From Candidatus Latescibacterota bacterium (GTDB taxonomy: Bacteria; Latescibacterota; UBA2968; GCA-2709665), in NCBI GenBank assembly GCA_965237675.1, contig OZ250150.1, forward strand, positions 192,001 through 256,000: DNA of 64,000 nucleotides. Direction: 5' to 3'. The notes below the pieces were generated by a model. The model saw only the letters and a list, made by a program, of their open reading frames with translations. It was not told where the DNA came from and made no database searches. This document shows, in pieces, positions 9,691-52,800 of this stretch; the first letter of the stretch is position 1; each line of letters starts with the position of its first letter. A program made the translations under genes and the position numbers.

Positions 9691-9717
9691 CTGAAGGACG
9701 ATGGAAAAGGAGCGTGT

Positions 9718-19965: not shown

Positions 19966-20260
19966 TCCATTTGTAGCACTTCTGAGGCCCGGATTCGATC
20001 CGACTTCGGTGTGTTGGCAGGGAATTCAAGAATAATCCCCTATTCGATCCTGTCAGCATCCTCTCCCCGTCTTACATTTCATCGCGATGCTTTTCCATCG
20101 ACGTGTAATGATCGCGCTAGCGGACATGCCATCGCAGTCTGCCCGCCCTGGTATGACGCAGACCGATCCGACGATTCCGTCAGAGACAGGAATACTCGTG
20201 AAATATTGTCCAGGCTCCATTCTTCGACCGAACGCAGGCGGCACTGTGCCGAGAGACTTT

Positions 20261-32831: not shown

Positions 32832-35234
32832 CTATTCCAGGGCGGCGATTGTCCCCGGCGGGATTTGCGTTTCAGCGCCATTGTGTGTCACCTGAGCCAG
32901 GGCAGTGCCCGTGTTTCTGGCCCACACCACGCCGGTCTCGGCGGCGTTGATTTCAAGCGCGCCCTCTGTGGTGATGTTCAGGAGCGCTTCCTGCAGAAGG
33001 GCTTCGCCCGCTCCGAGAGTTCGCGCATAGGCGACCCCGTCCTCCGTTACGGACGTAACGCCCCCAAAAATAGGAATGTCGGAAAGTTCTGAGCGCTGCG
33101 CCGTAAAGGTAAACGCGGTGGCTCTGTCGCCGAAGTTCGCCACGGCCAGGTGATTGTCCGCGAGAAGGCCAATGGCGGATCGTTCAGTTTGCATAATCAC
33201 AAAGTCGATACCTGCCGTATTGCGATGGCTGCGATCCGGGGCGATGAGCGCAGTGAGTTCGGAAATAGTCTTGCCGGAGGTTACCTGAACGGGTTCGTCG
33301 ACCCGGCTGAGGGTGACGTCATCGGCCACGGCGCGCCAGACCTGGTAAAAGTGACGGTTGCGGTAGACGGTTTTCCCGGTACCCGTGTAGACGATACCCA
33401 GGCGGTTGTCGATGTTGAGCCACGCCGGATGATCGTAGGTCTTGACGTCGTCGCTGTCGGGATCCCTCGTGACGTAACTCCTGAAGCGATCCGAACCGCC
33501 CGGCGTGTGGACGTTACGGTAGCCGTTGCAGTTTCCCTTCAGGGCGTTGAAGTCTTCATTGACGATGCGCAGGAAACCCTGGTCGACACTCTGAACGGTA
33601 ATATTCTCTCTGGCCGTGAGCCGTTCGCAGGAAAGGGAGATACCGGAGGGCAGGCCCGCAAAGAGCACTTCCTGGCGTACCGAACCCTGGGCGCGGTTCA
33701 GGATCAGCGCGGCGGCAAAACCTTCCTGATGTTCGTCCACTCGAACGGAGATCAGGTCGTGGCTGTCGGGCCTGTCCTGAACATCGATGCTGGCCAGAAA
33801 CGAATTTGACGCCGGCGCGACCGTGTAGAGGCCGTCCTTGTTCAACGGCAGCACCATGATGTCGTTTCGCCACGAGAGTGAAGTTTGACCGGTGCGATGT
33901 CTCTGAAAGACGAAACCGGATTGGGGATAGACCTTAACGCCCCTCAGGCTGCGTTCGACACGCGACGAGGGTGCAGGATCCGGTCCGTCGCCGAAGATCC
34001 TGTGGAAGAAATAGGTGTGGGCGGGATTGACGATGTTGTGTTCCCGGATGATAAGCGGATCCTGGGGTCCATGCACCATCTCGGCGATCTGTTGATCGTG
34101 CACGCGCCCGCCGGCGCTTTCCGCGCGCTGTTCCAGGGTCTCAAGCGCCTGGCGTTCGAAATACGCGGCGTCCGGGTCGTTCAGGAACAGGGCGGCCGTC
34201 GCATGGGTGAGCGTGCCCGGGTCGGGCGAGAGATACGGCCAGTCCATGCCCTGCACGGGATGCATCGAGCCGGTCCGGTCCGTGGTACGTTTGAGTTGGT
34301 CGTAGATTTCCTTCCGGTTGAATAGGCCATGTACCGGAACCTCCGCGCCGAACGCCCCGTAGATGATGCCGAGCCGCCCCAGGAACATAACCGAACTGCC
34401 GGTGTAGCTGGGATGCACCATGCCGTGGTTCTCGGCCATATAGTCCGGCAACGTGGTGAAAGTCTGGCCGGTGAGTTCCCGAACGGTCTGACCGTTTGAA
34501 AACGGCGCAAAGTTCTTCGTGTCCTGCTGGGTTGTGGCCGTGGAGAACATCCAGCGGCGGGCCGTCTCGGCCCAGGATTTGACGTGGGGCGAGTTGCTCA
34601 GGAAGCACTCAACGGAGGCCAGGCCGCAGGATGTCCAGCCGTTTTCTTCCATTTGCGTATTGGTAAAAACGCCGCTCTTGGGCGCCATGGCTCCGAACCT
34701 CTCGGCATAGTCCTCGTGCATGCGCGCGATCATACCCCACGTCTCGTCGTCGACCATTCCGCCCAGCAAGAGGGCGATGAGGCCGACGTCGGAAAGATTC
34801 GTTCCGCACTGGCTCTCGGGGAAAAACCCCCGGCCGCGTTCGCCCCACTTGGTGCCCCAGGTTCTGGGATTGCCCAGGCTCTTTTCGGGCCGTATACAGT
34901 CGGCAGGACCCGTGTCGTGGGTATAGCAGAGATAACGGATGCCCTTCAGCGCGATCTCCCGGAGTTCCTTCCTGGAGCAGCCGGTCCGTTTCGCGTCGTA
35001 TTCGGGCGAATTCGCGAGCGCGGCAAATACGAAGGCCGGTCCGGCCGTGTCGCTGCCGTACCAGTGGGCGCCGCCGAAAAAATGCCCGCAATTGGGACGG
35101 TCCGGCCAATCTTCGAAATAATCGAGGCCTATGGGTACCCAGTTCTCCAGGATGCGCTTATAACGCCTGCTCAGCGGGGTTTCCATGGCAGGCACGGACG
35201 TCCGCCGGCGGTTGGTTAGAATTTCAGGGAGCAT
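32832..35234 (-). CDS. Large hypothetical protein, possible polysaccharide-lyase-like (helical toroid + beta-sandwich)
   Basis: 800 aa with coding-like composition and RBS AGGAG. NTQMEENGW, ENHGMVHPSY and QGMDW motifs in a helical N-half; beta-rich C-half. The function is inference. Confidence 0.6.
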   Translation of the reverse strand: MLPEILTNRRRTSVPAMETPLSRRYKRILENWVPIGLDYFEDWPDRPNCGHFFGGAHWYGSDTAGPAFVFAALANSPEYDAKRTGCSRKELREIALKGIRYLCYTHDTGPADCIRPEKSLGNPRTWGTKWGERGRGFFPESQCGTNLSDVGLIALLLGGMVDDETWGMIARMHEDYAERFGAMAPKSGVFTNTQMEENGWTSCGLASVECFLSNSPHVKSWAETARRWMFSTATTQQDTKNFAPFSNGQTVRELTGQTFTTLPDYMAENHGMVHPSYTGSSVMFLGRLGIIYGAFGAEVPVHGLFNRKEIYDQLKRTTDRTGSMHPVQGMDWPYLSPDPGTLTHATAALFLNDPDAAYFERQALETLEQRAESAGGRVHDQQIAEMVHGPQDPLIIREHNIVNPAHTYFFHRIFGDGPDPAPSSRVERSLRGVKVYPQSGFVFQRHRTGQTSLSWRNDIMVLPLNKDGLYTVAPASNSFLASIDVQDRPDSHDLISVRVDEHQEGFAAALILNRAQGSVRQEVLFAGLPSGISLSCERLTARENITVQSVDQGFLRIVNEDFNALKGNCNGYRNVHTPGGSDRFRSYVTRDPDSDDVKTYDHPAWLNIDNRLGIVYTGTGKTVYRNRHFYQVWRAVADDVTLSRVDEPVQVTSGKTISELTALIAPDRSHRNTAGIDFVIMQTERSAIGLLADNHLAVANFGDRATAFTFTAQRSELSDIPIFGGVTSVTEDGVAYARTLGAGEALLQEALLNITTEGALEINAAETGVVWARNTGTALAQVTHNGAETQIPPGTIAALE

Positions 35235-35360: not shown

Positions 35361-35780
35361 TCACGTCTCCGGGTTCCGTCCTAAGATCTTGTCGATTAAT
35401 GACCTCCGTGAAAGTCGTTCCACTGCGTTTCGAGTGCTTCGGATTTCCGACGAAAGTTCGTCGACGACGCCGAGCTTTTCATGGATTCGAGCGAGCGCTT
35501 CCTCAATCGCCGTGAGCCTTTCGCCGACCTGCAATGGTTCGGTGCGTTGCAAGAGTTCAACGGCATTCTGGAACGCTGAAAGGGCACTATTCAGCGAATC
35601 AATCGCGTCTCTCGCCACAGAGGCGAGATCCGAGACGATGACATTGGCTTCACCGAGCCCTCTGCCTGCGTTGGCAAGAGAATGTTGGAGCGCATCGAAC
35701 TTTTCGAGACGCTGCACCACCTCCGTGGCTCGACGTTCGGTTTCACTGAGCCGTTCCTGTAGATCTTCCAATATATCCAT
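35361..35780 (-). CDS. Small coiled-coil protein
   Basis: ATG directly abuts the RecQ-like stop (TAAATG); heptad-rich sequence ending RRSLIDKILGR. Confidence 0.75.
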   Translation of the reverse strand: MDILEDLQERLSETERRATEVVQRLEKFDALQHSLANAGRGLGEANVIVSDLASVARDAIDSLNSALSAFQNAVELLQRTEPLQVGERLTAIEEALARIHEKLGVVDELSSEIRSTRNAVERLSRRSLIDKILGRNPET

Positions 35781-38700
35781 TTACGCTCCCAATGCCTTTG
35801 CCACGCCGGGCGCCTCATATTGGCTGGCCACCCGGTCAGCTATCTGATTCAACCGATCGACAACGTTGCGAACCCTTCGGATCGCAATTACGGCGCGGAC
35901 GCGGGGATCGTCAAGGTCGCCCGTACGCTGAGACACCCGCCTTTCCAGGTATGCGAAGTCCGGCGCCGCATCGGCAAGATCGAGCAGCGCAACCGTGAGG
36001 GGCGGCCCGAGATCACCGGCGCGGGTTGACGCGAGGTCGTACATCTCGTCGATGGCCGCCTCGATATCCGTCCGCGAGATCCCATATTTTTCAACGCCGC
36101 CGCGGATCGCTGCGCCGATTCCCCTGGCGCTGACGGTTTCATCGTGATCCGAACACATCGACTCTGAAAGCGCGCGAGCCAGAAGAAGCCCGGGGTGGTC
36201 CGGGTCGGACTCGAGCGCGCGAATGCACAGACCACGAAGCTCGCCCGCGTCCATCACCGTCTGCACTTTGGAAACAAGATTCCACCACGAGGACAACTCG
36301 ACATCCTCACTCTTTAGCAGTCTTTCAATGTGCTCTGCGCCAAAGCCCTCCTGAAGGTAGTCGAGCAGCCGTGTACGAATTTCCGCGTCGTCTCGCGCCT
36401 GACGTGCCAGTAACAGGGCCTCCCTGATCATACCCCGCCGCGAACGTTCGACGAGGTCGTACGTGAACTCGATCAGTATCGTGACCAGCGCAAGCACCGC
36501 GTCTCTCGGTCGGCAAGTGCCGATCCTATCAACGCTTCGGACGATCGACTTGCTCCTTCCGGGTTGGGCCGAGCGAACGAATTCAAGCAGCCTGTTCTTA
36601 CAGCGATCGAAATCGAACGCCTCCGCATGAAGCACAAACTTGCGGGATCCGAAGTCGACCTCATAGTCGTCAATCACGCCAAGCCTGAGGAGCCGGTAGA
36701 CGGCCTTCTCCCCTCTGATGCGGTTGTCACCGTAGGGTCGTTCGATTCGTTGTCTGGAAGAGAGATCGCCCAGCGCATTCAAAAGATCGGTCACATCATC
36801 GATTTCCCGAGCCGCCCCACTGAACGCCTGCAGGTGAAACCACAATGCCCGGGTGATGTCATCCGCCGTCTGGCGGTTTCCTTCAATCGCTATAAATTTG
36901 CTGCGAAGCGCCTCCAGGTCGAGATCGGGATCGATCAACTCCGAGGAACGACTCGAGTCGTATTCCGAAAACACCACTGTCGCGCGTGCGAGTTTTCGAT
37001 CCCGCCCCGCGCGGCCGGCTTCCTGGTAGAAGCTCTCGAGCGACATCGGCATCCCGAAATGCACCGTATACCGGATATTCGGTTTGTCGATCCCCATCCC
37101 GAACGCTTTGGTCGCGACGAGCACGGGCACGCGATTGGCTTTGAAATCCGCCGCATTCTCACGCTTCTCCACGTCCCATTTCCCGGCATCCACGGACCCC
37201 GGCGGGTTGCCTGAGTATAACGTGACTTCCGCACCCGTAGCCTGCCGCACGATACTGCGCGCATCCTGTATCCCGTAAGTACGGGCATTGACCGTTGGGA
37301 CGAAGACGATTCCCGAAGCGGTATGGGCGCCCGAGGGTCGGTAGAACTCCGCCCGGGGCAACCCGAATTTTCCCGGCAGTGCGTTCAGCACGCCGCGCAG
37401 CGCCGCCTTAGGTTCCTCCGTCGGCGAGGTGCGCACGATCTCGAAGCGAATCTCGGAGCGATCGAAGGACGCCGGTCGAATTAATGCGTCCGATCGGTTC
37501 CTGTCGATGCCCAGGTCGGCAAGCATGTCCCGTAAGACCGCCCGCGAGGCGGTTCCCGTGAGGGCCAGCAGCGGCGGCGGCCGGCGTTCGCGATCCGCGC
37601 CGAGCCGTCTCAGGTTGTTCGCGAGGTTCAGGTACGCGGGACGGAAATCGTGTCCCCACTCCGATACGCAATGCGCTTCATCGATAACCGCAAGGTTGAC
37701 CGGCGCGCACTCCACCAGCGCACGGAGCGCCGCCCGAAACTGTGGCGACTGAAGCCGTTCGGGCGCGTGAAGCACGAACAGGTACTCGCCGCGTTCGATC
37801 CGCTGGAGCAGGCGTTCACGTTCCTCGCGCGTGGAGAGTTGGCCGGTAATCGAAACCGCCCGATCGATTCCGTAGGACCTCAGAACCTCGACCTGGTCTT
37901 CAATCAACGCGGTTATGGGATCGACCACCAGCGTTACGCCAGGCATCAGGAGCCCGGCGAGTTGATAGATGATACTCTTGCCCCCGCCGGTCTGAAGCAG
38001 CACGACGCTGTCTTTCTGTCGCAACACATTGAAGATGGCCTGCCCCTGCATCGGGCGGAAATCTTTCTTGCGAAATATGTTCCGGAGGAACATCCGGAGC
38101 GGTGCGTGAGCTTCTTCGTAGGTCGACACCGCGGTCCCTCGCCGGCGCAGGTCGAACGACTGCCCGGCCGCGATCAATGCCGGGACGTACACCGGGCGAA
38201 TGACGAAATCCCGCCCCTCGTGCCTGACCCGATGAAACGGGCTCATTGTGGACTCGATGGCAATGCTCAACCGGTCCACGGGTGCGTCGATCAGGGTGGT
38301 CTCCACCCACCGGCCGGCGTCGCCGCGCATCCACGTCTTGTGAAACCCGTCGTCCGCGCGCACGGAACATCGGGTTGGGACCGAACAACCACCATACAGA
38401 ATATCGATGCCCGCCAGCAACCGAAGCGCATCCAGCACCGCGGCCGCGGCCGGGGCTCCGGCCCCTTGTATGTCAATATCCCAGCTGCCGCCCGGCGTCA
38501 GCCACCCGTATTCCAGCGCGCGGGCGATCGCGAACTGTACCTTCGCTGCTGTTGCGCAATCCAGAACAAGCGAGGCAACGGCCCTTTCTTCACCGGCGGC
38601 CAGGCCGAATGCCGTCAGAGCCATCTTGCATCGACCGCGTATCTCATCCAGCATGGCGCCCTGGCCACTCAGCACTTCCGCGTTGGTGATCCGTAGAACG

Positions 38701-39635
38701 TCAATCCCGATCGAGCGCAGCGCCTCATCCCGCGCTTCGTCCACCGCGGTCGCTCCCTGGTGTTCCGGACCGTCGATTTCGATTGCGAAAGGTGATCCGC
38801 CCGGGTGGCTGAAGAGGAAATCGGCACGCCGGGCGCCGCTGCCATATCCGCCTGCGGACTCAACCAGCCTGTCCAGTGGCGCCTGCGGCGTGAGCCAGTG
38901 GCCGGCTGCGGGCCCGAGCGCCGTGGGCACCCATTGGTTGAGGAACCAGGCTTCCGCCTGGCTTTGCAGCAGCATTTCGTCCGAACCGGGATCGAAGTCG
39001 AAAGCAGGTTCGAGGATAAAGGGGACTCTTTGAGTGACACTTGAAAGGACGGTCTCGGTTGTCAAACGCAGTGACGCGCCTGGCCGCGGCTCCCAACCGA
39101 CATCCGTCCCATCTTCGCCGATCTCGCTCACCCTATCCAGAAGACCGAGGGAACGCAGCGCTTCGCGTTCGACATTCAGGGTCGCCAGGGGCGTATGGCC
39201 GCGGCGCAGCAACTTGAGAAGCAGTCCGGTTGCTAAGCGGACGTGCTCAGCCGCCTCTCCGCGCTCCCGGCTTCTGCGGGAAAGCAGCACGCACTGGCTG
39301 AGCGCACGCTTCAATAGTCCGTCCTGCAGGAGCCGATCCTGAAGGATTCCGGGCACTGCCCCGACAGACACGTACTCGGGGATGAAATCGGTGCGCCGCA
39401 CGCCTTCGATCCATTCGACGGGTAGCAAGGCGTCCGGCAACAACCGGGTCTGGCGGGAGGGTTCAGCCGGTTCCCCTTTGTCTCCAACGTTTCGGGTACC
39501 GCGACACCTCGGAAACTTCGTGCAGCCCCAGAACTGTTCGCCCGGGTTTCGACCCCGCTTCGCCGTGCGAAGCGCCATTGGAGCACCGCAGGAAGGACAC
39601 CGGGGCGATTCAGACTGGGAGATCGATCTATTCAT
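35781..39635 (-). CDS. Zn-ribbon / DUF559-like nuclease / RecQ-family helicase fusion
   Basis: CPSCG...FWGCTKFPRC (topoisomerase-type C4 ribbon); RADFLF...IEIDGPEH...DEARDEAL..IG..VLRI (DUF559/Vsr-like); TGGGKS, DEAHCVSEWGHDFRPAY, TGTA, AFGMGIDK, QEAGRAGRD. Confidence 0.92.
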   Translation of the reverse strand: MNRSISQSESPRCPSCGAPMALRTAKRGRNPGEQFWGCTKFPRCRGTRNVGDKGEPAEPSRQTRLLPDALLPVEWIEGVRRTDFIPEYVSVGAVPGILQDRLLQDGLLKRALSQCVLLSRRSRERGEAAEHVRLATGLLLKLLRRGHTPLATLNVEREALRSLGLLDRVSEIGEDGTDVGWEPRPGASLRLTTETVLSSVTQRVPFILEPAFDFDPGSDEMLLQSQAEAWFLNQWVPTALGPAAGHWLTPQAPLDRLVESAGGYGSGARRADFLFSHPGGSPFAIEIDGPEHQGATAVDEARDEALRSIGIDVLRITNAEVLSGQGAMLDEIRGRCKMALTAFGLAAGEERAVASLVLDCATAAKVQFAIARALEYGWLTPGGSWDIDIQGAGAPAAAAVLDALRLLAGIDILYGGCSVPTRCSVRADDGFHKTWMRGDAGRWVETTLIDAPVDRLSIAIESTMSPFHRVRHEGRDFVIRPVYVPALIAAGQSFDLRRRGTAVSTYEEAHAPLRMFLRNIFRKKDFRPMQGQAIFNVLRQKDSVVLLQTGGGKSIIYQLAGLLMPGVTLVVDPITALIEDQVEVLRSYGIDRAVSITGQLSTREERERLLQRIERGEYLFVLHAPERLQSPQFRAALRALVECAPVNLAVIDEAHCVSEWGHDFRPAYLNLANNLRRLGADRERRPPPLLALTGTASRAVLRDMLADLGIDRNRSDALIRPASFDRSEIRFEIVRTSPTEEPKAALRGVLNALPGKFGLPRAEFYRPSGAHTASGIVFVPTVNARTYGIQDARSIVRQATGAEVTLYSGNPPGSVDAGKWDVEKRENAADFKANRVPVLVATKAFGMGIDKPNIRYTVHFGMPMSLESFYQEAGRAGRDRKLARATVVFSEYDSSRSSELIDPDLDLEALRSKFIAIEGNRQTADDITRALWFHLQAFSGAAREIDDVTDLLNALGDLSSRQRIERPYGDNRIRGEKAVYRLLRLGVIDDYEVDFGSRKFVLHAEAFDFDRCKNRLLEFVRSAQPGRSKSIVRSVDRIGTCRPRDAVLALVTILIEFTYDLVERSRRGMIREALLLARQARDDAEIRTRLLDYLQEGFGAEHIERLLKSEDVELSSWWNLVSKVQTVMDAGELRGLCIRALESDPDHPGLLLARALSESMCSDHDETVSARGIGAAIRGGVEKYGISRTDIEAAIDEMYDLASTRAGDLGPPLTVALLDLADAAPDFAYLERRVSQRTGDLDDPRVRAVIAIRRVRNVVDRLNQIADRVASQYEAPGVAKALGA

Positions 39636-39671
39636 ATCGGCTTTCGTGCCGAGCATCCCGAAAAGGAGGAG

Positions 39672-40334
39672 TCAATACGCGCGGACACCTGTCCTCTCGC
39701 CGATCCAATCGATCATGGCACCGAATGTGGGACATTGGTCCGCGATGTCGTGCAGGTCTGCGTTTTTCAGGATGGCATAACTATCCGTATTTTCGCGATA
39801 GGACCGTTTGAGATGTCTCTGGAAGAGTCCCTCAACGATTCTCTTCGGCGGTCTGTCTTGATTCTGTTTTTCGGGAGGTCGGCGCCAGCCGCGGGGTTCG
39901 TTCGTCATTCTAAGGCGTGACCCAAGTTGACTCGTTGCCGCAAGGAGCAACACTTCCATGTCATATTTAAAAGCACTGGCATAAAAACGTGCGAAATGAC
40001 TGTTGAAATCAGCCTTGCTAACCACCCGCTGCAGATTCCGCCCTACGAGTCGGGTTTGGATGTCCCTTAGTTCCTCCAAATCACCGTGCTCGTATTCCGT
40101 GGCAAATCCTCGATTCGGGTATAGGTCCGGTAAGCCTACAACCAGGTCTCTGGGATTGTTTGCCAGTTTCTCAGTCGCTCGTGCGCCGATCTTTCTCAGA
40201 TATTTTTGTTTGTTGTTCAGGGAAATCAGCTTAACGCCCCAACCCTCGTGACCAAGCTGCCGTTTCCAACCGCTCAACAACGCCGATAGTGCCTGTTCGT
40301 CCGAGTTCCCCTCCACAAAAATCCACACCTTCAT
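39672..40334 (-). CDS. DUF4276-family (TOPRIM/RloB-like) protein
   Basis: IFVEGNSDE, GLPDLYP, MEVLLLA, PEKQN..PPKR, CPTF motifs; ATGA overlap with the ATPase. Confidence 0.8.
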   Translation of the reverse strand: MKVWIFVEGNSDEQALSALLSGWKRQLGHEGWGVKLISLNNKQKYLRKIGARATEKLANNPRDLVVGLPDLYPNRGFATEYEHGDLEELRDIQTRLVGRNLQRVVSKADFNSHFARFYASAFKYDMEVLLLAATSQLGSRLRMTNEPRGWRRPPEKQNQDRPPKRIVEGLFQRHLKRSYRENTDSYAILKNADLHDIADQCPTFGAMIDWIGERTGVRAY

Positions 40335-41623
40335 GCGCCGGCCTCCAGTTCGCCGGAGCGGTGGAGGTCTCCAAGGGTTTCGCCTGTAACGTTCTTAAGC
40401 ATCTCCACAAGCGTCTTCCGGTTCGCCGGGCGGTGCCATGCTACCTTTGCGTCGTCTTCGCTCCGCGCCATCACGGCTACGTCGTCAATATCGAAGCGGT
40501 TGAGCAAATCCGGGCTGTGAGTCGTCACCAGCACCTGGGTGCGTTCCGCGGCTGTCTTGATCATTTCGGCGACGACCGGCAACAGCCCGGGATGCAAACC
40601 CAATTCGGGTTCGTCAATTGCTACCATCATGCGAGGCGCCGGAGTCAATAGAGCCGTCGCCAGGCAGAGGAATCTCAGCATGCCATCTGAAAGATCCCAC
40701 AGATTCATGGACCGGTGCATGCCCTTCTCGCGCACGCCGACGAGCACTTGCGGCGGCGTTCCATAGGTAGTGTCGCAATGTATCTCCTCAAATGCCGGGT
40801 AAGCTACGCGCAGGAATTCGCGCAGCTCCTCTGCCGATGACCGGTAGTCATATCGAGTCAGGATTTCGTGCAGCACGGTCCCGAGATTGCCGCCATTGCT
40901 TGACAATGTTGTAACTGGTAAAATGTCGGCGGCCTTGGTGCGAAGCGAGGAAGACCGTGTCATATCGAAACCGGGGTAGAACGCCATATGTGCCAACAAA
41001 ACCCGAACGGAAGAGGGAACAGGAAACTCGTTGAAGAACCGAATTTGCGAAAGCAACAAGGCGACTTCCTGTTGTGCCGTCTGGGCAGGAACGCTCGGCA
41101 GAGCAGTTTCCGAAGGATTGGACTCGCGTACAATATCAGTTGACGATTGCGCTTCATCAAACGGTGTAAACTTACCTTGTCTTCTGTCGAATATCTGCCG
41201 GCGGTATGGGGTTGCCTCCAGGAACTTGAAGGGTTCCATATGACCAGGTGCTGGCTCTTGGTTTCTGAGAACCTCGTATCGGGGCTGCATTTGGTTCTGA
41301 GTATCTGGCACTAAAACGACCTCGTACACCAGCGACTTTTCCGCCTCCATGTTCAAAATGCCCCATAGGGTGGGGTCATGAAAAGTGATGTTCCAGGTCA
41401 ACTGCTTGTTAACGTTACCCGAGGAAATGATGGACGCTGCCCCATAGTGCCAGCCAATTGCCGAATTCAGGGGGACCTCGCAACACTCCGCAATCAGTTG
41501 CAGGCAATCGATCAACGTACTCTTACCGACCGCATTTGCGCCGATCACCACGGTGAGCGGTTTTAAGTCCGCTTTGAAGTCGTCGAGAAGCCGGTAGCCC
41601 CCGATCTCAATTTCAGAAATCAT
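40331..41623 (-). CDS. ABC-type (AAA_21/AAA_15) ATPase
   Basis: Walker A GANAVGKS, signature LSDG, Walker B/D-loop IDEPELGLHP, H-loop TTHS. Confidence 0.92.
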   Translation of the reverse strand: MISEIEIGGYRLLDDFKADLKPLTVVIGANAVGKSTLIDCLQLIAECCEVPLNSAIGWHYGAASIISSGNVNKQLTWNITFHDPTLWGILNMEAEKSLVYEVVLVPDTQNQMQPRYEVLRNQEPAPGHMEPFKFLEATPYRRQIFDRRQGKFTPFDEAQSSTDIVRESNPSETALPSVPAQTAQQEVALLLSQIRFFNEFPVPSSVRVLLAHMAFYPGFDMTRSSSLRTKAADILPVTTLSSNGGNLGTVLHEILTRYDYRSSAEELREFLRVAYPAFEEIHCDTTYGTPPQVLVGVREKGMHRSMNLWDLSDGMLRFLCLATALLTPAPRMMVAIDEPELGLHPGLLPVVAEMIKTAAERTQVLVTTHSPDLLNRFDIDDVAVMARSEDDAKVAWHRPANRKTLVEMLKNVTGETLGDLHRSGELEAGA

Positions 41624-41989
41624 AGGAAAATACCTTTCGCGTCAATTGTCGACATCGTTACAGTGCGCGGTTCCGGCGGTTGAGTACCTTGCGGGAGAGT
41701 TTGGCATCTGCGTCGCGGCCCTTGGCGCGCTTGATGCAATACATCAAAGGACGATTGCTTACAATTAATGCCCTTCAGACGGTCTGTCAAGGGGCATAAC
41801 ACAGGCAAGGATCGTGCCAGGCGTGGGGGTGAGGTTTTCTCTAGATCATTCATCATGGCACGCCGTAGGGACAGGTTCGGGCCGCTGGAGTTCTGATTCG
41901 ACGTCGTCCGGTCCCGACCAAGCGCGTCAGCAGATGCCGTTGCGGTGAATCGCCGAATCGAAGGGTATCGGCCAGCTACGGTATCCGCT

Positions 41990-42727
41990 CTACTCGACTG
42001 CGAACAGACGGTTGCGCGACGGCAGGCTGACGAACTTCGAGAAGTGGTGGATCTGCAGATCGGGGTGGCGGGAATCGACGGCGGTGGGCGCTTCGATCAC
42101 GAAATCGGCGAAGTGGGGGGCATTGAATGCCACGAAGGCGAGCGACAGGGAGTCGACAAGCCGCGTGGGCCTCGACGAGAGGTCGGGAAACGCGAGCGGG
42201 CCGGTGTCGACCTGGTACCGGTCGTCCTCGCGGCGGGTATTCATCGTCTTCACCGGGCATTCGATCAGGGCCCTGAGTCCGGTTTCATCGTTTCGGATCT
42301 CGGTCTGCGAGACCAGCGGCGCGAAGCGGTACGTTTCCTCGCGGATGGACGCGTTCGACGGCAACTCGCGAATTCTCCTGCCTTCGACGAGGTGGAGGTC
42401 GTAGCCGCCGAACATCTCCGCGTACGGCCGCGTTTCCCGGTAGCGGACGCTGAAATAGGCGGGACGCCGGAAAATGAGCCCGTACCCGGCACTGAAGATC
42501 GGAAGAAAATCGTAATTCTCGCGCCGGAACAGATCCTTTTCGTGGAAGGTGTTCTCGCTCTTGCACGAGGCGGTCTGGTAGAAATCCTCGCAGATCCCCT
42601 CGCTTTCGTCGATAACGCGGGTGCGCGACTCGATCCAGAAGCGCGCCTCGTTTGTCCGCCCCTTTCCAATCAGGAACGAGCGGCCGTAGTCGAGCGGGGT
42701 CATTTCGATCTGTGAATCGCGATTCAT
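41990..42727 (-). CDS. Hypothetical protein
   Basis: Strong GC3 bias and enzyme-like motifs (DYGRSF, RFWIESRT, ASCKSENTF, NYDF, ECPVKTMN, QVDTGP). Confidence 0.7.
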   Translation of the reverse strand: MNRDSQIEMTPLDYGRSFLIGKGRTNEARFWIESRTRVIDESEGICEDFYQTASCKSENTFHEKDLFRRENYDFLPIFSAGYGLIFRRPAYFSVRYRETRPYAEMFGGYDLHLVEGRRIRELPSNASIREETYRFAPLVSQTEIRNDETGLRALIECPVKTMNTRREDDRYQVDTGPLAFPDLSSRPTRLVDSLSLAFVAFNAPHFADFVIEAPTAVDSRHPDLQIHHFSKFVSLPSRNRLFAVE

Positions 42728-42881
42728 AGCGCACACTCGCCGGTTAGCGACACAAAACACAAAAACCCCAGAACCTCAAACGCTCCCGCAGGGTATCCCG
42801 AGGTTTAGCCCCAATCCCTTGGAACTTCCTTTGTAGCTGCGATACTTTCGGTTAACCTAATAGCAGGTTCCGGCGGGCAAT

Positions 42882-44664: not shown

Positions 44665-45561
44665 TTACATCAGGCGTTTACGCTTGGCAAGATAATTGAA
44701 CAAGACCGTATCGAAGGGCTCGGCGGTGTCCAGCAGGACATAGTCGATCAGGCTTTCACGGCATTCGCGGCCCAATTGTTCGGTGAGGGCGCCCATATGG
44801 TCTCTGTAATCGGATGCGATGTGCCACGGTTCGGTGGTCACGGAGGCACCGGATTCGAGATCGACGAACCGGGTTTCGCGACCAAAGGCGAGATCCCGTT
44901 CCCTGGGATCCAGAATGTGGAAGACGATTACTTCGTGTTTGCGGTGCCGGAAGTGTTTCAGGCCGGAAAGCAGGGAACGCGGGTCGTCCATCAGATCGGA
45001 CAGGACCACGATAAGACCGCGTCGCACAATACGTTCGGCAAGGCTGTGGAAGGTTGTGGCCAGGTCGGTGTCTTCTCCCTCGGGGTCTGTATTCTGTAGC
45101 GTTCGAAGCAGGGCGTGAAGATGCGTACTCGCTGATCTGGGCGGGAGGTAGGTGCGGATGCCGCGGTCGAAGGCTACCAGGCCGACGGCGTCGCGCTGGC
45201 GCAGCATCAGGTGTGAGAGGGCGGCAGCGGTATAGGCGGCATACTGATACTTGGTGAGGGCAGTGGAGCCATATGCCATCGACCGGCTGGCGTCCAGGAG
45301 GATATAGGCCTTGAGGTTGGTTTCTTCTTCATATTGTTTCACGTACAGCCGGTCGGTCTTGCCGTAAACCTTCCAGTCGACGTTGCGCGGCGGGTCACCC
45401 GGTATGTACTGACGGTATTCGGAGAATTCAACCGAGAATCCATGGTACGGACTCTGGTGCAGGCCCGTGATGAAGCCCTCGACCACGAGGCGGGCAACCA
45501 GGTCGAGGCGGGACAGGCGGGCGACAACGTCGGGCTGGAGGTACGCGCGGAAATCGGGCAT
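44665..45561 (-). CDS. DUF58 (vWA-like) protein
   Basis: GLHQSPYHGFSVEFSEYRQY, VDWK, YEEETN, LDASRSM, VLSD. Confidence 0.93.
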   Translation of the reverse strand: MPDFRAYLQPDVVARLSRLDLVARLVVEGFITGLHQSPYHGFSVEFSEYRQYIPGDPPRNVDWKVYGKTDRLYVKQYEEETNLKAYILLDASRSMAYGSTALTKYQYAAYTAAALSHLMLRQRDAVGLVAFDRGIRTYLPPRSASTHLHALLRTLQNTDPEGEDTDLATTFHSLAERIVRRGLIVVLSDLMDDPRSLLSGLKHFRHRKHEVIVFHILDPRERDLAFGRETRFVDLESGASVTTEPWHIASDYRDHMGALTEQLGRECRESLIDYVLLDTAEPFDTVLFNYLAKRKRLM

Positions 45562-45581
45562 CGGCGTTCGGAATTGAGGAA

Positions 45582-46577
<996 letters not shown>

Positions 46578-46659
46578 GGTTGGGAAATCCTTTGCGGGGC
46601 GGAAGGTACCGTTTTCGCCGATTCTCCAGGCCGCCGGCTGCTGACCGCCGGGGCTTCGT

Positions 46660-48018
46660 TCAGGTTTTCTGTTTCTGTTTTTTGGCTGCGGGAAAAAGGA
46701 CGTTGTTCAATATGAGGCGATAGCCAGGCGAGTTCGGGCGCAGGGCGAGTTGCGTGGGCGGGTCGCCTACGAAGTGGCGATAATCTTCCGGGTCGTGGCC
46801 GGCATAGAACGTAAACGTGCCCCGGCCCACGTTACCGTGGATGTATTTGACCTGGTCCGTACCGCTCACCTCGCCCATAATGGTGACCGACTTCTTGATT
46901 CGGCCCTTTCGGAATGCCGTGGTCTGCCCCAGAAACCCCCGGACAACGGGAACGTGGTTCTGGGTGAGCATGGTGGGCACCGGATCAAATTTGGCCGAAA
47001 ACTCAAACAGGGTGAACGCGTCCGCATCGGGCCCGCGGAACTGCGCGCCTGTGGTGGGCGAGACGTCGATGTCCGCGTGTTCATATTCCAGAGGGTCCGT
47101 GACCAGGGAAAAGTTCTCAAATGCGATGGTTCTTGAAAAATCCAACCTGGCCTGTGCCGCGGGGTGGGGCGGATCCCCGTCGTACACGGTATCGACAATG
47201 TCGACACCGGCCGAGGCCAGGGCAATGTCAAAGGTATCTGTGGCGGAACACATGGCAAAGACAAACCCGCCATCGGAGATGTATTCCAGAATGGTCCGGG
47301 CAACGGCGCCTTTTTCCAGGGACACCTTTTTGAAACCGAGGCGGCTGGCAAGGCTTTCGAACTGGGCCTGCTGACGCCGGTACCAGAGTTCGTGGCCGTG
47401 GCTGCGATAGAATTTTCCGTATTGGCCGGTGAAATCTTCATGATGCAGATGCAACCAGTCATACTCGGAGAGTTTACCGGCAAGCACTTCCTCGTCCCAG
47501 AGGATGTCGTACGGGATTTCGGCGTAGGACAGGGCCAGGGTGACGGCGTCGTCCCAGGGCTGTTTGTTGGGCGGCGTATACACTGCAATTTTCGGCGCTC
47601 TTTCCAGCCGAACGGGATTCATGTTTTCGTGCTCGATCTCCGCGAATATTCGTACGGCATCGGCGCCGGCGATGCGCTCGAAAGAGACGTCGCGCAGACG
47701 GGCCTCCATGGCCGCCGATTCCACGTATTCCATCATGAAGGCGCCGCCCCGGTAGTTGAGCAGCCACTCGACGTCGATACTCTGTTGCAGCGACCAGTAG
47801 GCCAGCCCATAGGCCTTGAGATGATTGGTCTGCCCCAGGTCCATGGGGATGAGCAGTTTGTCGGCGGCCGCGTGGGAAGAGAACCCGAGCAGACACAGAC
47901 AGAAAGCCATGGTCCTGACGAGAAGACCGGGGACTCCACACGGGGGGCGGGCGAAGCGAGTGTCCACCCGGGGGCCTGGGGAGGACGTCTTTCGGTACTG
48001 CCGGCAGTGAGTCTTCAC
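46660..48018 (-). CDS. Conserved exported protein of the FCB group (often labelled 'asparagine synthetase B'-like; GATase-like fold)
   Basis: LIPMD..QTNHLKAYG, WLLNYRGG, PWDDAVTLAL, WLHLHHEDFTGQYGKF, FAMCSATD, NSPGYRLILNNVLFPAA. Alternative start ATG 47910 gives a signal peptide. Confidence 0.8.
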   Translation of the reverse strand: MKTHCRQYRKTSSPGPRVDTRFARPPCGVPGLLVRTMAFCLCLLGFSSHAAADKLLIPMDLGQTNHLKAYGLAYWSLQQSIDVEWLLNYRGGAFMMEYVESAAMEARLRDVSFERIAGADAVRIFAEIEHENMNPVRLERAPKIAVYTPPNKQPWDDAVTLALSYAEIPYDILWDEEVLAGKLSEYDWLHLHHEDFTGQYGKFYRSHGHELWYRRQQAQFESLASRLGFKKVSLEKGAVARTILEYISDGGFVFAMCSATDTFDIALASAGVDIVDTVYDGDPPHPAAQARLDFSRTIAFENFSLVTDPLEYEHADIDVSPTTGAQFRGPDADAFTLFEFSAKFDPVPTMLTQNHVPVVRGFLGQTTAFRKGRIKKSVTIMGEVSGTDQVKYIHGNVGRGTFTFYAGHDPEDYRHFVGDPPTQLALRPNSPGYRLILNNVLFPAAKKQKQKT

Positions 48019-49845
48019 CTATCCGGGCTCCTTGCGGTTGGCCTCAAGGGCTTTTATCTTCTCTCGAAGCGCCCGCACCTGTTCCCGGGCCTCCTCTGCT
48101 TCCAGGCTGTGCGGATATGCCGCCAGCACAGATTCGTATGTGCGCAGTGCTTCCTGGTATCGGCCCAGCCGTTGGTCGTAGATCCTGCCCATGGTGACCA
48201 TCGCCTCCGGGCACAACGGGCTCCACGGGACGGTCGCAAGCAGGTGCCGGGACATCCGGATGGCTTCGTTGTGACTGCCGAGTCTATCCAGAAGCGCGAT
48301 CTGACTCGCCAGGGCACGGTCCAGTAGCCGCGACTTCCCATGGGTTTCTACAAACGTCCGGAAGGCGTCCAGGGCCCTTTCCGGTTTTTGCTGTCGCATG
48401 AGCCTGGACGCCGCTGAATAGGATTGAAGCACCCCGACATCTTCAAATTCGGCCTGCTCGAGCAGGACCGCCAACGCCAGCGCATCGTTGAAAGCGAATC
48501 GGTTGGACGAGCCCGACAAAAGGCTGTCAATAATGGCGCGGGCGGCGCCTAAGTCACCCGAAAAGAAACGGCACTGCGCAATACCGAAACGAGCCTGGGC
48601 GGCGTCTTCCTTGCCGTGTTGTTCACGTGCCACGCGGGCGTAAACCGATTCGGCCTCCGCGAGCCGGTCCGACAGAACCATCATATCCGCGATTTCGAAG
48701 AGGGCGCGATGGCGCCAGGAAGAACGCCTCTTCGCCCCTGCGACGGCGCGAAATACATCCAGTGCGGCCGCAGTATCCCGGTAGACCCCGCGCAAGAGAC
48801 GTCCCAGACGATAACCGGCCTCGTGGGCACGTACAGTCCGGGGAAATCTGCCAATCAGATTCCTGTACATCGTCGCAGCCGTGTCGACCTGCGACAATCC
48901 TTCGCTTGCCCTCCCCAGGCCCAGCAATGCGCCGGGCAACTGGGCGGTGGTATCGAGTCGGTCCAACAGCAGACGATAAGCCGCGGCCGCCGTGTCGAAC
49001 TCGCCGGCATCGAAGGCGTGTTTGGCGACTCGGAACAAGAGCGTCTTCTGAAGCGGATCGAGACGTGAGAACGTCGCAAAGACCCGCAGGGCCGGCTCCT
49101 CACGTCGGGCCGCCAGGGCGTATTCCGTGAACAGCCGCAGTGAAATCTCGTCTCCTGGATGGGTCCGGACCTCCTGGCCGAGTGTGGCAAGTATCCGTTC
49201 CTGGTGATCGCCCTCCTGGGCAAATTTCCTGAAGCGGGTTTCGACGAACCCGAGAGACTGCGGCTGTTGCCGAACAAAATCCAGGTATTCGGCGACGGCG
49301 TCGGGATAACGCGCGAGCCTGTCGGCGATTTCAGCCATTTCCCTGGCGAAGAGCCGCGGGTTTTTCAGGGTTTTTCGTCCCTGCCGGCAAACGGAAAGCG
49401 CCCGCGACGGAAGGTTGTGTTTCAGGAGGCTTTGCGCAACCCTCTGAAACGTACCCTCATCGGCTGCTTCCGTGACGATTCGGTTCCAGTTTGCAATTGC
49501 CCCATCCAGGTTGCCCGTTTCGGACTGGACGTCCGCCAGACGGAAACGGACCGACCTCTCCCGCGGTCTCTTTTGAAGATGGGATTCCAGGAGGCGAATG
49601 GCTTCGCCGCGGCGCCCCGTGCGGAAGAGAAGGGATTCCATACGGAGGAGAATGTCAGCGCGGTTCGGATACCGTTTCAAGAGCTTCCTGTAAAGGTGCA
49701 ACGCGCCCTTCAGGTCGCCGGATGCTTTCTTCGCATCGGCGTGTTTCAGGGTCTCGCTGGCAGTGCCGGCGGGGAGACTCACCGGCAAGAGTACGACAAG
49801 GGCCGCAAGGATCGGGAACAGGCGAGATGAAGTCCGGGTCTTCAT
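48019..49845 (-). CDS. Exported TPR-repeat protein
   Basis: Signal peptide plus many TPR-like helix pairs (Y..L..RFP, A...G..Y, YP.S). Confidence 0.85.
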   Translation of the reverse strand: MKTRTSSRLFPILAALVVLLPVSLPAGTASETLKHADAKKASGDLKGALHLYRKLLKRYPNRADILLRMESLLFRTGRRGEAIRLLESHLQKRPRERSVRFRLADVQSETGNLDGAIANWNRIVTEAADEGTFQRVAQSLLKHNLPSRALSVCRQGRKTLKNPRLFAREMAEIADRLARYPDAVAEYLDFVRQQPQSLGFVETRFRKFAQEGDHQERILATLGQEVRTHPGDEISLRLFTEYALAARREEPALRVFATFSRLDPLQKTLLFRVAKHAFDAGEFDTAAAAYRLLLDRLDTTAQLPGALLGLGRASEGLSQVDTAATMYRNLIGRFPRTVRAHEAGYRLGRLLRGVYRDTAAALDVFRAVAGAKRRSSWRHRALFEIADMMVLSDRLAEAESVYARVAREQHGKEDAAQARFGIAQCRFFSGDLGAARAIIDSLLSGSSNRFAFNDALALAVLLEQAEFEDVGVLQSYSAASRLMRQQKPERALDAFRTFVETHGKSRLLDRALASQIALLDRLGSHNEAIRMSRHLLATVPWSPLCPEAMVTMGRIYDQRLGRYQEALRTYESVLAAYPHSLEAEEAREQVRALREKIKALEANRKEPG

Positions 49846-52800
49846 TGGGAATTCTCGCGTTTCAGCGCGTCCTGCATCAATGCTTCGAAGTAGTTCCGGA
49901 TGAGTCGCTGGTATTCGGTGGCAAAACCCGCATCGAGCGCCTTCCGGAGCCGGTCACGGAGCGGGTTGTCCGCTTCTCCCAGATTTGAAGGCAGCGAACC
50001 CGGCCCCTCGTACGCGAGGTCTGTACCCCGCCTGGCACGCCGTTCTCTGCTTCGGTCGCGTTCACGAATCGACCTCTGGGCATCCAGCAGGCGTGAGAGA
50101 ATCCTGCGCTGGCGTTCGAGTGTACGGCTGCCGACGCGGCGGTTCTTCATCTCCTGAATGACCGCGTTCATTTCGGAAGCGATATTATCCAGATCGCCGA
50201 GCAGCGCCTGTCTACGGCTGCCCATCTGCTGGCGGATTTCCTCCAGTGCCTGCTGGATGGCTCTCTGTCGGGCGGCCATGCGAGCGAGGCTCAATTGCTG
50301 GCCGGGTTCCTCCACCGCGGGGCGCTGCGGGCCGAACATGGATTCACTCTGAGCGTTCAGACCCGCCTGCCGGTCGGCCACGTCCTGCATGCGCTGAAGC
50401 ATTTCTTCATAGCCGACCGAAGAACCGGCAGCGGCGATGTCCTTGACCACCCGACGGAGCGCCAACGCCGTGGCGTTGAGGGCGCCCATTGCGTCCTGGC
50501 CGGTACGCGTTGCCCGGGATCCGGCGCGGGCCTGGATATGTCCGGCGGTCTCGCGGATCTTAATGAGAGCCCGACCCAGCGCCGCGCCGGTTTCGGGCGT
50601 TACAAAATAGGTCCTGTGAGCGACTTCCATCAGGTGGTCCGCCAGACGCGCTGCGCCGGCCAGAATACGGGCTTGCTCAAGCGCAAGCGCCGTCGGGTCG
50701 CTATCCCGGGAGATATCCCCCGCCTTACGCGCGGTCTTTTCCTGCGCGGCGGAAAGGCCCAGCAGGTTGTGCGTTAACTGATCGAGTTGGCGCGTCAGCG
50801 CTTCTTTCTGCCGACTGACGAAGGCCTGCCTCGCCGCCTGGAGTTCGCTCGCGAACCTGTTGAGATCTTCCGCTATGCGTGCACCGCGGTTTCGGGCGGA
50901 CCGTGCTGCTCCCTCGCGCAATTCGCGACTGACCTGCCGCATCCGCCCGGGGATACGCTGCTTTTCAAAACGGTCCGCCAGGCGTCCCAGTTCGTTCGCC
51001 ACCCCGGGGTGCTCCGCCAATTTCCCGGCAGTCTGCGCAAGTTCATCCTCAAATGAATCGGCCCGCCTTTCAATCGCGTCCTGTTGCCCGGCCACGGACG
51101 AAGGATCACGTTCATCGGCGATGTTGTCAACCACGCGCCGCTGATCTTCAGTCAGCGCTTCCAGCGTCCTGGCCAGCGCCTCTAGGTTCTGCTCGTCCCT
51201 CAGTTGTTGCAGCAGAGCGATCGTCCGCTCCAGAGCCTGCTGAAACCCGTCCTGTTCGGCACGGAACGCCTTGAGGGCCTCCTTCACGGCTTCAGGGTCG
51301 ACGCGCTGCATGGCGTCGCGGAGTTTCTCCATAGCTTCTTTCAATCCAGGCGTCTCAATTTCGGTGAGCAGCTCCTGAATCTGGTTCAGCTTTTGAAGCG
51401 TTTCGTCCCCGAGAAGTCCGCTCTGTTCCAGCCGGTCGAGCGTTTCTTCGAGTTTCTCGCTAACTTTCTCAAGATGCTCCGCCGCGGTGACCTGGTCCTT
51501 AATTGCGGTTTCCAGTTCCTTACGGTGCTGCCATTGCATCTCCTGTCCTTTCAAGAGTCGACGCGCAATCTCTTCTAGGCGTTCCCGAACCGCCTTTCCG
51601 CCTTCCCGGATGTCTGTCATCCGTTCCAGCCCCTCTTCCTGGGCTCTTTGCGCCTGCCGGTGGATTTCCAGGAGAGAAGGAAAGCGGATGGTGAAGGCCG
51701 GTGTTTCTGCTGTGCCGGGGCCGGAGACGATGTTGGTGTCATACGCGCGCAGCCGAAAGACGACCCGGTCGCCCGGCAGCAAATCCAGGCTTGAAAGATC
51801 CCAGACGGTGGTCTGGGTGAGTTCTCCTGCGCCCGGGTTTACCAGGGGGAGGGGTATGGTATTCTGCTCCGCGTCATCGTTCAGGAGGTAACGAATCTCG
51901 ATCCGCGCGACGCCGAAGTCGTCGCGGGCTTCCACGAATAGAGGGACCCGCATGTTTTCCCCCAATTCGGTGTCTCTGCCCGGTCGGAGAAGGCGGATTT
52001 CAGGCGGTTGGTCCTTAAGGGCCACAACGCGGTATTCTACAGGATTCGTGCTGGGGATACCGTGGGTATCGCGCAGGACGATTGTATATCGCCGGTTCTG
52101 CCTGACGGTCAGATTGACACGAGCGAAACTTCCGTTAATCCCTGCCGGTGACGCGGTGCTGTCGTCGAAGACGATTTCAACCGTTTTCAGCGGCAGGCTG
52201 GATTCGACGTGGAGGGCGGTCGAGGTTCCGGCAATGGCCACAATGTCGCCACCGCCTATGTCCCTGACTTCCTCCAGCCGGGTATAGGCCGGATAACGGT
52301 TGTCGTGTTTGATCCGCACGACCATCGGCCGGGGTTTCGCGGTGAGCGTGTAAACCGGCGTTTCCGCGTCGTTCGCGCGAAGACGGTACTGAAACGACCG
52401 TGTAACCGAGGGCATCCTGTGCGCGATCCGCCCGTTCCGGACGGTAAGCTCAACTGGTGTCCACGTATCGTCTTCCCGCATGTGCATGTGGGCCCGGAGG
52501 GGCACGAGACCGGTGAGAGTCGCCGTTATTTCGAAGGGTTCGCCGGCGATGACTTCAGCGCTACCGGGCTGAAGTGCAATAAAGGTCTCGGGCGGACGGA
52601 CATAGACTGCTGCCGGATGGGCGAGCCGTCGGGCGGCCGCGGTAAGCGGTCCGGGAAGAATTGCGAACGCGAGGAGAATGGCCAGACCGAGAGCGCCACA
52701 CAGGGCAGCCATCCGCAGGGGTGGCGTGCGGGCGACAAGGAGGTCCAGATTCAGCCTCGCAAGCGTTTCATCCGCCTGAATCACCGCGGCTTCGACCATC

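Follow-up and report, generated by a model that had tools for sequence, protein, structure and literature searches.

A cluster of four genes from a Candidatus Latescibacterota genome (G000; assembly GCA_965237675.1, contig OZ250150.1) is considered here. The genes lie on the minus strand of a 64,000-nucleotide stretch of that contig (positions 192,001 to 256,000), which we call the window and to which coordinates given without a prefix refer. The initial annotation had proposed a novel four-gene anti-phage operon and, as a fallback, that the genes were two independent pairs sharing a hotspot. It is the fallback that the evidence favors: the four genes are probably two separable two-gene modules, placed side by side in a variable defense hotspot. 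Module A is made up of an ABC ATPase (gene 1, HEC-01A-like; 40331-41623, 430 residues) and a Toprim-like DUF4276 protein (gene 2, HEC-01B-like; 39672-40334, 220 residues), and is recognizable as an HEC-01-type pair, an already catalogued candidate and not a validated system. Module B is made up of a multidomain helicase fusion (gene 3; 35781-39656, 1291 residues) and a small helical, coiled-coil-like partner (gene 4; 35361-35780, 139 residues). These two genes form a coherent, independent pair with strict linkage between helicase and partner, and on present sequence evidence they represent an uncatalogued candidate family. A novel operon of four genes is not what emerged: half of it already has a name, its halves occur apart, and their adjacency is confined to one lineage.

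Adjacency was assessed by tblastn of the four window proteins on 20-kb stretches of genomes from the phylum. All four genes occur together in six sister genomes of the same genus (G046, G050, G053, G055, G056, and G058). In a sister genus, G040 carries the ATPase pair with a 108-residue helicase remnant, and three genomes of another family (G102, G107, and G167) encode the helicase and its partner with no ATPase or DUF4276 match in 20 kb; among the 150 of 308 matches listed, their DUF4276 copies lie more than 500 kb from the helicase. Helicase and partner are likewise found without module A in L001, from a Bryobacterales metagenome-assembled genome (MAG), and in L002, from a Proteobacteria MAG. 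Altogether, helicase and partner homologue stand in this order, with no HEC-01 alongside, at five genome loci (L001, L002, L102, L103, and L105); an integrase lies next door in L002 and HsdM in L105. Metagenomes give the same picture, with module A present at just one of 80 module B loci, although many of these contigs carry little DNA upstream of the helicase. That locus, L117, belongs to the window's own lineage; it is 73% identical to the window over the C-terminal domain of the helicase and has the same flank gene. Among the 146 neighbors within 3.6 kb in the 42 non-redundant metagenome loci, DUF4276 was not found and AAA_21 was found once.

The ATPase also occurs on its own side of the divide, since orthologues without the helicase are present in G045 and G060. 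The G060 copy (L108:8128-10394; 76% identity by tblastn) has no detected DUF4276 gene, and the gene after it is class I methyltransferase-like. Moreover, the modules decay independently: the ATPase is frameshifted in G046 and the helicase in G058, and only a helicase remnant survives in G040, while in G045 DUF4276 is read in two frames. HEC-01 thus adjoins the helicase in one genus, plus the decayed copy in its sister genus, and at one syntenic site only. The fallback of two modules in one hotspot is supported by this separate occurrence, by independent decay, and by the AbiC gene and duplicated flank found between the halves in some relatives, which are described below.

The site itself is variable across 15 genomes of the genus. 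It lies between an open reading frame (ORF) of 256 residues (41990-42760, minus strand, with the strand uncertain), which belongs to no family, and a gene for an 800-residue protein (32832-35234, minus strand) with no Pfam family. Both flanks are conserved. The 800-residue protein has an orthologue in all 15 genomes (82-91% identity), and the 256-residue ORF stands beside the site in 13 of the 14 sister genomes (80-85% identity). In G051 that side is unreadable, as the contig starts inside the helicase; here helicase and partner are seen at the contig start and the upstream side is not covered. Five genomes have an empty site (G047, G048, G052, G054, and G057), four of them with an ORF of 208 or 217 residues and of no family. 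The site consists of the four genes in G000, G050, and G053. To these G056 adds an insertion sequence (IS) transposase and ABC-3C genes (CTD7, MC3, DUF3732), and G058, whose helicase is the frameshifted one, also adds ABC-3C genes. The order in G055 is ATPase, DUF4276, putAbiC, and then helicase and partner. G046 has the frameshifted ATPase, DUF4276, putAbiC, and a 96-residue ORF, followed by helicase and partner and then by 8xMP and two TIR genes. G045 has the ATPase, DUF4276 (its two frames lying across two contig ends), and putAbiC, with no helicase, and in G049 putAbiC is accompanied by an AAA_13 gene that an IS has disrupted. The site is a variable defense hotspot, holding AbiC, ABC-3C, and TIR genes in sister genomes, and the suspicion of a defense island in the initial annotation is confirmed.

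A trace of how the cassettes came together is preserved in G046 and G055. The 344-nucleotide spacer between putAbiC and the helicase in these genomes (L101:11779-12122 and L100:7996-8340) contains two pieces of the upstream flank. The first is a copy of about 72 nucleotides from the 3' end of the 256-residue ORF (90-92% identical to its source in G055 and 79-82% in G046), and the second is about 40 nucleotides of what is normally found just ahead of the ATPase. The ATPase-DUF4276-AbiC cassette is therefore enclosed by direct repeats. Most simply, a helicase pair would have been resident first, with the cassette then inserting between it and the flank gene; in the lineage of the window, AbiC and the repeat would later have been lost, leaving the tight junction seen today. 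At the window's copy of the locus, neither a tRNA gene nor a flanking direct repeat was found.

The packing of the genes in the window is as close as was originally described, with all four ORFs co-oriented on the minus strand. Both of the junctions noted at first sight were verified in the sequence: the start of DUF4276 overlaps the stop of the ATPase in an ATGA, and the start of the partner abuts the stop of the helicase in a TAAATG. The gap between genes 2 and 3, originally given as 36 nucleotides, has that length from the second ATG of the helicase (39635) and is 15 nucleotides from the first (39656). Either start keeps the zinc ribbon at the N terminus of the helicase; the protein collection places the start 26 residues further in, which would cut the ribbon. 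Matches to promoter-like and terminator-like patterns in the window did not exceed the shuffled expectation, and no internal signal was found between the four genes. In composition, the ATPase and DUF4276 genes (55.0% and 51.9% GC) are indeed more AT-rich than the window as a whole (59.2%), as had been remarked, but this is not peculiar to module A, as the small gene 4 (54.3%) is too; the helicase has 62.2%. GC at third codon positions (GC3) is 0.57-0.64 in module A versus 0.71 in the helicase.

The domain content proposed for the genes (ABC ATPase, DUF4276, and nuclease-RecQ fusion) was confirmed by scans with Pfam, NCBIfam, and PADLOC models. The ATPase matches Pfam AAA_21 (1.1e-30) and AAA_15 (1.6e-20), and its Walker A (GANAVGKS), ABC signature (LSDGMLR), Walker B (IDEPELGLHP), and H-loop (TTHSP) motifs, read from the translation, are intact. 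Against PADLOC-DB v2, it matches HEC-01A (PDLC04175) at 1.9e-54, and a total of six HEC-01A models reach 1e-30 or better. Gene 2 scores 58.4 bits against the Pfam DUF4276 cut-off of 30.2 and covers profile positions 1-191 of 192, while its match to PADLOC HEC-01B (PDLC04188) is weak (4.4e-6). Residues E8, D70, and E127 are invariant among eight orthologues, and the VEG, DLY, and xE(V/A)LL motifs recur, as matched by eye, in the consensus of 24 other DUF4276 proteins.

DUF4276 is a family that is unusually abundant in this phylum, being present in 87 of 168 genomes at up to 11 copies per genome, with three in G000. One of these copies belongs to a second pair of ABC ATPase and DUF4276 genes (G000:C1:857325-858607), in which the ATPase is 33% identical to that of the window and DUF4276 scores 78 bits. 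The window's DUF4276 protein belongs to a divergent subfamily: phmmer matched it to none of 40 ORFs taken from the 30 DUF4276 sites that score best in the phylum, and a hidden Markov model built from the best-scoring DUF4276 proteins of the phylum did not reach it.

HEC-01 (Hma-embedded candidate 01) is described, in the preprint that catalogued it, as a pair of ABC ATPase and TOPRIM proteins embedded in Hma systems (bioRxiv 10.1101/2024.01.29.577857). DUF4276 is given as a Toprim member and Mad4 homologue in one article (PMC12065111), and as one of the partners of AAA15/21 defense ATPases in another (PMC11464382). Module A shares with HEC-01 the pairing of ABC ATPase and Toprim/DUF4276 protein, encoded in the window by adjacent, co-oriented, and overlapping genes. 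It differs in the weakness of the HEC-01B match and in not being embedded in an Hma system. A match to an already named system, which the initial annotation regarded as fatal to its proposal, was thus found for the ATPase/DUF4276 half; the helicase half fits neither PsyrTA nor Dpd.

The logic of a sensor ATPase with a Toprim nuclease is also common to PARIS, MADS, OLD, and Gabija, and the ATPase is correspondingly matched by the PADLOC models for AriA (1.2e-30), mad3 (2.6e-19), and GajA (1.4e-18). The partner sets module A apart from PARIS, in which AriB is a DUF4435 protein, and from OLD/GajA, in which the Toprim domain is fused. DUF4435 has no match on gene 2 at E ≤ 0.01, and AriB is not among the three PADLOC families that match this gene. 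As for MADS, the ATPase reaches 105.1 bits against NCBIfam MAD3 (NF047739), for which the cut-off is 420, and neither a methyltransferase nor another mad gene is present among the scanned flanking genes in the window. If module A works in the manner of PARIS, OLD, and Gabija, its ATPase would act as a sensor or scaffold, and the Toprim protein as the nuclease effector that cuts nucleic acid.

The helicase fusion of module B is a more unusual protein. From the N terminus, it comprises a zinc ribbon of the Top1/GRF type (residues ~20-57), a domain without a match (~72-230), a Vsr/DUF559-type PD-(D/E)xK nuclease (~228-348), an alpha/beta domain without a match (~350-515), a RecQ-family helicase core (~520-915), and a winged-helix-like unit followed by an all-helical C-terminal domain of no family (~915-1291). 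Pfam recognizes Zn_ribbon_Top1, DUF559 (34 bits against a cut-off of 20.6), DEAD, and Helicase_C. The core belongs to the RecQ family by NCBIfam (TIGR00614 recQ_fam, cut-off 219.8 bits, score 239.5), its closest solved relatives are RecQ cores (E. coli RecQ, 1oyw, 2.2e-82, over the core only), and the motifs DEAHC-SEWGHDFRPAY and QEAGRAGRD can be read from its translation. It is not the housekeeping RecQ, since it scores 266.6 bits versus 640.2 for TIGR01389 and 213.5 versus 1015 for PRK11057, and Pfam finds no RecQ_Zn_bind, RQC, or HRDC in the fusion; nor does the protein reach the cut-off of any other NCBIfam equivalog.

Predicted structures support these assignments. In an AlphaFold2 model of residues 1-550 (predicted local distance difference test score, pLDDT, 89.0), residues 228-348 resemble other nucleases of the Vsr/DUF559 type, with 3hrl at Z 9.9 (root-mean-square deviation 3.1, 94 residues aligned), I-Bth0305I (3r3p) at Z 9.9, and Vsr (1cw0) at Z 7.9. 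The zinc ribbon matches the GRF zinc finger 7jl5 with a Foldseek probability of 1.0, the matches of this N-terminal model being at the level of domains only. Conservation agrees with both assignments: across 54 sequences, with identities down to about 22%, nuclease residues D279, E293, D295, and H299 and zinc cysteines C20, C23, C45, and C51 are all conserved at 90% or more. A model of residues 900-1291 (pLDDT 89.7) predicts a small winged-helix-like unit and then a helical bundle. Against the PDB, Foldseek found nothing for it at E ≤ 0.001 (best E 0.32), and VIA-align returned only generic helical-repeat matches (best Z 6.8); the match of RecQL4 (5lst, Z 6.1) to the first half of this model is a lead only. 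The best score for residues 915-1291 in the ESM Atlas (0.89) was to unnamed clusters and is not usable. VIA-align barely covered residues 72-230 and 350-515, as the nuclease domain filled its match list, and the domains without a match are not claimed as new folds.

Among named systems, the nearest in layout is PsyrTA/RqlHI, which is likewise a two-gene pair, the gene for a RecQ-family helicase coming before that for a smaller protein. Helicase residues 521-895 are matched by the PADLOC PsyrT model at 1.7e-62, but only over positions 9-344 of the model's 689, so that the likeness is to the core only, and PsyrA has no match on gene 4. Module B differs in adding the zinc ribbon, the Vsr/DUF559 nuclease, and an unrelated C-terminal domain, and in having as its partner a short helical protein, usually tail-anchored, that matches neither PsyrA nor a PRTase. 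The PRTase domain of RqlH/PsyrTA had been reported as absent from the locus, and this agrees with the lack of a PsyrA match and of any PRTase family on gene 4. The combination of helicase motor and nuclease in one polypeptide is shared with the single-protein defenses Hhe, Hna, and Nhi and with DpdF of the Dpd system. In Hhe, too, the nuclease is of the Vsr/DUF559 type. Both Hhe and Nhi are superfamily 1 helicases, whereas module B has a superfamily 2 helicase of the RecQ family, and the Hhe model is not among the 25 PADLOC families that match the helicase fusion. The DpdF models of PADLOC match the core at 5.6e-85; membership in Dpd is contradicted by NCBIfam DpdF (NF041063), which gives 158.5 bits against a cut-off of 550, and no dpd genes are nearby. 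None of the four has the obligatory small partner or the C-terminal domain of module B, neither of which is covered by any model in PADLOC v2, Pfam, or NCBIfam. Among the papers listed by literature searches, none describes a RecQ-DUF559 fusion, though newer catalogues and bioRxiv supplements may list it.

Gene 4 itself has no family above cut-off in Pfam, PADLOC, or NCBIfam; a homologue of it stands after the helicase at every locus examined. The 80 metagenome loci were collected with an alignment of the C-terminal domain; 76 contain the helicase ORF, mostly of 1200-1290 residues, and in the other four the helicase runs past the contig end. A partner is encoded downstream in all 76. It is directly adjacent and co-oriented in 67 (gaps of -88 to +141 nucleotides), separated by one inserted gene in three, and found by tblastn in the remaining six, three of which are truncated by a contig end. 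The downstream proteins are related to one another, 70 of 73 (window, L001, and L002 included; 64 distinct sequences, as some loci are duplicates) falling in a single phmmer single-linkage cluster. Most of the adjacent partners (57 of 67) have a hydrophobic C-terminal 19-mer with a Kyte-Doolittle value above 1.6, and two more reach 1.51. This C-terminal membrane helix is absent from the partners of the window's clade and from a few others; the partner in L117, the window's nearest metagenome relative, has a value of 1.13. A predicted complex of helicase residues 500-1291 with the partner scored 0.01 against a mark of 0.32 with controls not run, and is uninformative on binding either way.

The family is widespread in sequence space and patchy within lineages. 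Among 1.84 billion proteins, the C-terminal-domain profile finds 1797, 1421, and 688 cluster representatives at E values of 1e-3, 1e-10, and 1e-30, respectively. All of 28 long representatives have DEAD and Helicase_C, with DUF559 in 20 and the zinc ribbon in 15. In the phylum of the window, the N-terminal half of the helicase is present in 13 of 168 genomes, and in the genus in seven of 14 sister genomes. Module B was found in none of 400 further genomes from another phylum, that of G168, and is nearly absent from viral contigs, where only two loci were seen. A scan of public genome contigs with a full-length alignment picked RecQ-core patterns and returned 78 ordinary RecQ-like loci and two true relatives.

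Variations on the theme are also seen. Rare extra fusions include an N-terminal Ser/Thr kinase in P0179 (1643 residues) and a C-terminal MutS_I in P0147 (1531 residues). In one sub-clade, a PDDEXK_1 nuclease gene lies directly upstream of the helicase (L150:2072-3112, L152:1190-2197, L167:128-1135) and may be a third component there; in L183, such a gene (9585-10772) comes just after the partner. A protein of 228-268 residues with an N-terminal hydrophobic segment is encoded between helicase and partner in L161 (1179-1931), L166 (5459-6145), and L171 (6059-6865). In Hymenobacter, a 1471-residue frame (L003 / G170:C2:391582-392208) matches the middle of the C-terminal profile weakly (4.4e-18) and is 37% identical to helicase residues 503-1149; it may represent a more distant architecture of the family.

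What does module B do? Its surroundings give some indication. Neighbors that match PADLOC models (E ≤ 1e-20, within 3.6 kb) and were judged to be genuine defense genes are present in eight of the 42 non-redundant metagenome loci, namely PDC-M72B, PbeA-like, TmtA, Mokosh/Hhe-like, type II restriction-modification, a PD-T4-6-like kinase, AbiE, and BrxL, and McrBC, recognized by Pfam, marks a ninth. Two IstB proteins that match DrmD were discounted as defense neighbors. Integrases, ArdC, and transposases lie near module B in other metagenome loci.

We consider it an even question whether module B defends its host. If it does, the enzyme would load on invading or replicating foreign DNA, with the zinc ribbon probably contributing by binding single strands. 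The RecQ-family motor would translocate in the 3'-5' direction with ATP, and the Vsr-type endonuclease would nick or cut the DNA. The small partner may restrain or position the helicase-nuclease and, in most relatives, would tether it to the inner membrane, the partner being predicted to be soluble in the window's clade. Such an arrangement would resemble, by analogy, the RecQ-like toxin/antitoxin defense pair PsyrTA. Gating at the membrane merits less confidence than defense as such. The picture in full, of a widespread two-gene anti-phage system whose partner is tail-anchored in the inner membrane with the enzyme waiting at the envelope, and of which the genus has a soluble variant beside HEC-01, is tentative, and we would put it at rather closer to one chance in three than to an even one.

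Several points weigh against the reading of two separate defense modules. The four genes are directly adjacent and tightly packed in five of the seven genus genomes that hold both modules, and such packing with no internal promoter or terminator signal means that they may be co-transcribed in the genus, and functional cross-talk is conceivable. All co-occurrences come from one lineage, so that they are weak evidence whether for a functional link or against it. In the HEC-01 preprint, the sole HEC-01 that its authors assayed protected against no phage tested (bioRxiv 10.1101/2024.01.29.577857). For the DUF4276 protein, the Toprim residues were assigned by eye, and hhalign aligned only its C-terminal half, with a probability of 82%. 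Many neighbors of module B are housekeeping genes (ribosomal proteins, ThiG, pyruvate dehydrogenase), and the enrichment of defense genes nearby, counted without a background rate, is suggestive. Finally, it is from sequence comparison that we infer defense activity for either module.

An alternative for module B is that it is mainly a toxin-antitoxin or addiction pair, in which the partner neutralizes a toxic helicase-nuclease and so stabilizes the island, with any effect on phage being secondary. The layout parallels that of PsyrTA, with a RecQ-like toxin gene followed by an antitoxin gene and the PsyrT model matching the core, and both the strict linkage and the translational coupling of stop and start codons in most loci would suit such a pair. 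Against this, the partner resembles neither PsyrA nor any antitoxin family, a membrane anchor is unusual for an antitoxin, and no solo helicase or solo partner indicating toxicity was seen, although no search was aimed at solo partners. We regard this alternative as unlikely, at about one chance in five.

Slightly less probable again is that module B is an accessory helicase-nuclease of DNA repair or recombination, the RecQ motor and the Vsr-like nicking domain acting on mismatched or modified DNA or on stalled forks. In its favor, the core is a true RecQ-family helicase, Vsr, which the nuclease domain resembles, is a repair nuclease, and one relative (P0147) carries a MutS_I domain. A methylpurine glycosylase, RmuC, or MgsA lies nearby in four loci (L118, L140, L162, and L194), and many neighborhoods are of the housekeeping kind. 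A repair function is difficult to reconcile with the very patchy spread of the family, within phylum and genus and in the 400 genomes of another phylum, with copies that are frameshifted or deleted in close relatives, and with a site that is otherwise filled by AbiC, ABC-3C, and TIR genes. An obligatory partner that is usually membrane-anchored is not a trait of known repair helicases, and the Zn, RQC, and HRDC modules of RecQ are absent by Pfam.

Least probable of all, and very unlikely in our estimation, is an integrated four-gene system, with infection sensed by the ABC ATPase and its Toprim partner, which would license the helicase-nuclease, and with the coiled-coil protein serving as adaptor: the overlap, short gap, and abutment of the genes, their direct adjacency in five genus genomes, the lack of internal signals above chance, and the description of nested or "embedded" defense genes as a pattern in a preprint (bioRxiv 10.1101/2024.01.29.577857) all speak for it, but the adjacency is confined to a single site in a single lineage, the halves are interrupted in G046 and G055 by an AbiC gene and a copy of flank sequence, G045 holds the ATPase pair without the helicase, the helicase pair is without ATPase/DUF4276 alongside in five genome loci and in 79 of the 80 metagenome loci, many of them with little upstream sequence, one half is broken while the other is intact in G046, G058, and G040, and GC3 is unlike between the halves.

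If the two modules are indeed separate, the apparent four-gene system would be an accident of the hotspot, with half of it already named, and a false lead is removed. What is left over is a testable two-gene helicase-nuclease candidate, with 1421 representatives at E ≤ 1e-10 and a partner downstream in every locus examined. Were module B to defend, a RecQ-family motor with a membrane-tethered regulator would join the known helicase-nuclease immune effectors, and PsyrTA would gain a second, structurally different relative. The hotspot of this genus offers a natural experiment on the swapping of defense cassettes, with empty, AbiC, ABC-3C, TIR, HEC-01, and helicase states all found at one site.

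Some minor features of the window may be added. An ORF of 78 residues (41620-41856, minus strand) overlaps the start of the ATPase by 4 nucleotides and matches no family. It was considered as a fifth gene and set aside: the same stretch is conserved next to the flank gene of G049, a genome in which module A is absent, and the ORF is therefore treated as flank sequence, which it probably is, and not as a gene. The genes around the cluster, namely those for the 800-residue protein of no family, the 256-residue ORF, and a chorismate-lyase-like protein, are unrelated to it, as had been noted from the first. Further out, the window encodes a 2524-residue Calx-beta/LapA-type adhesin-like protein (20087-27661, plus strand) and a Bat-like operon of MoxR (AAA_3), DUF58, TPR, and DUF4175 genes (44665-53177, minus strand).

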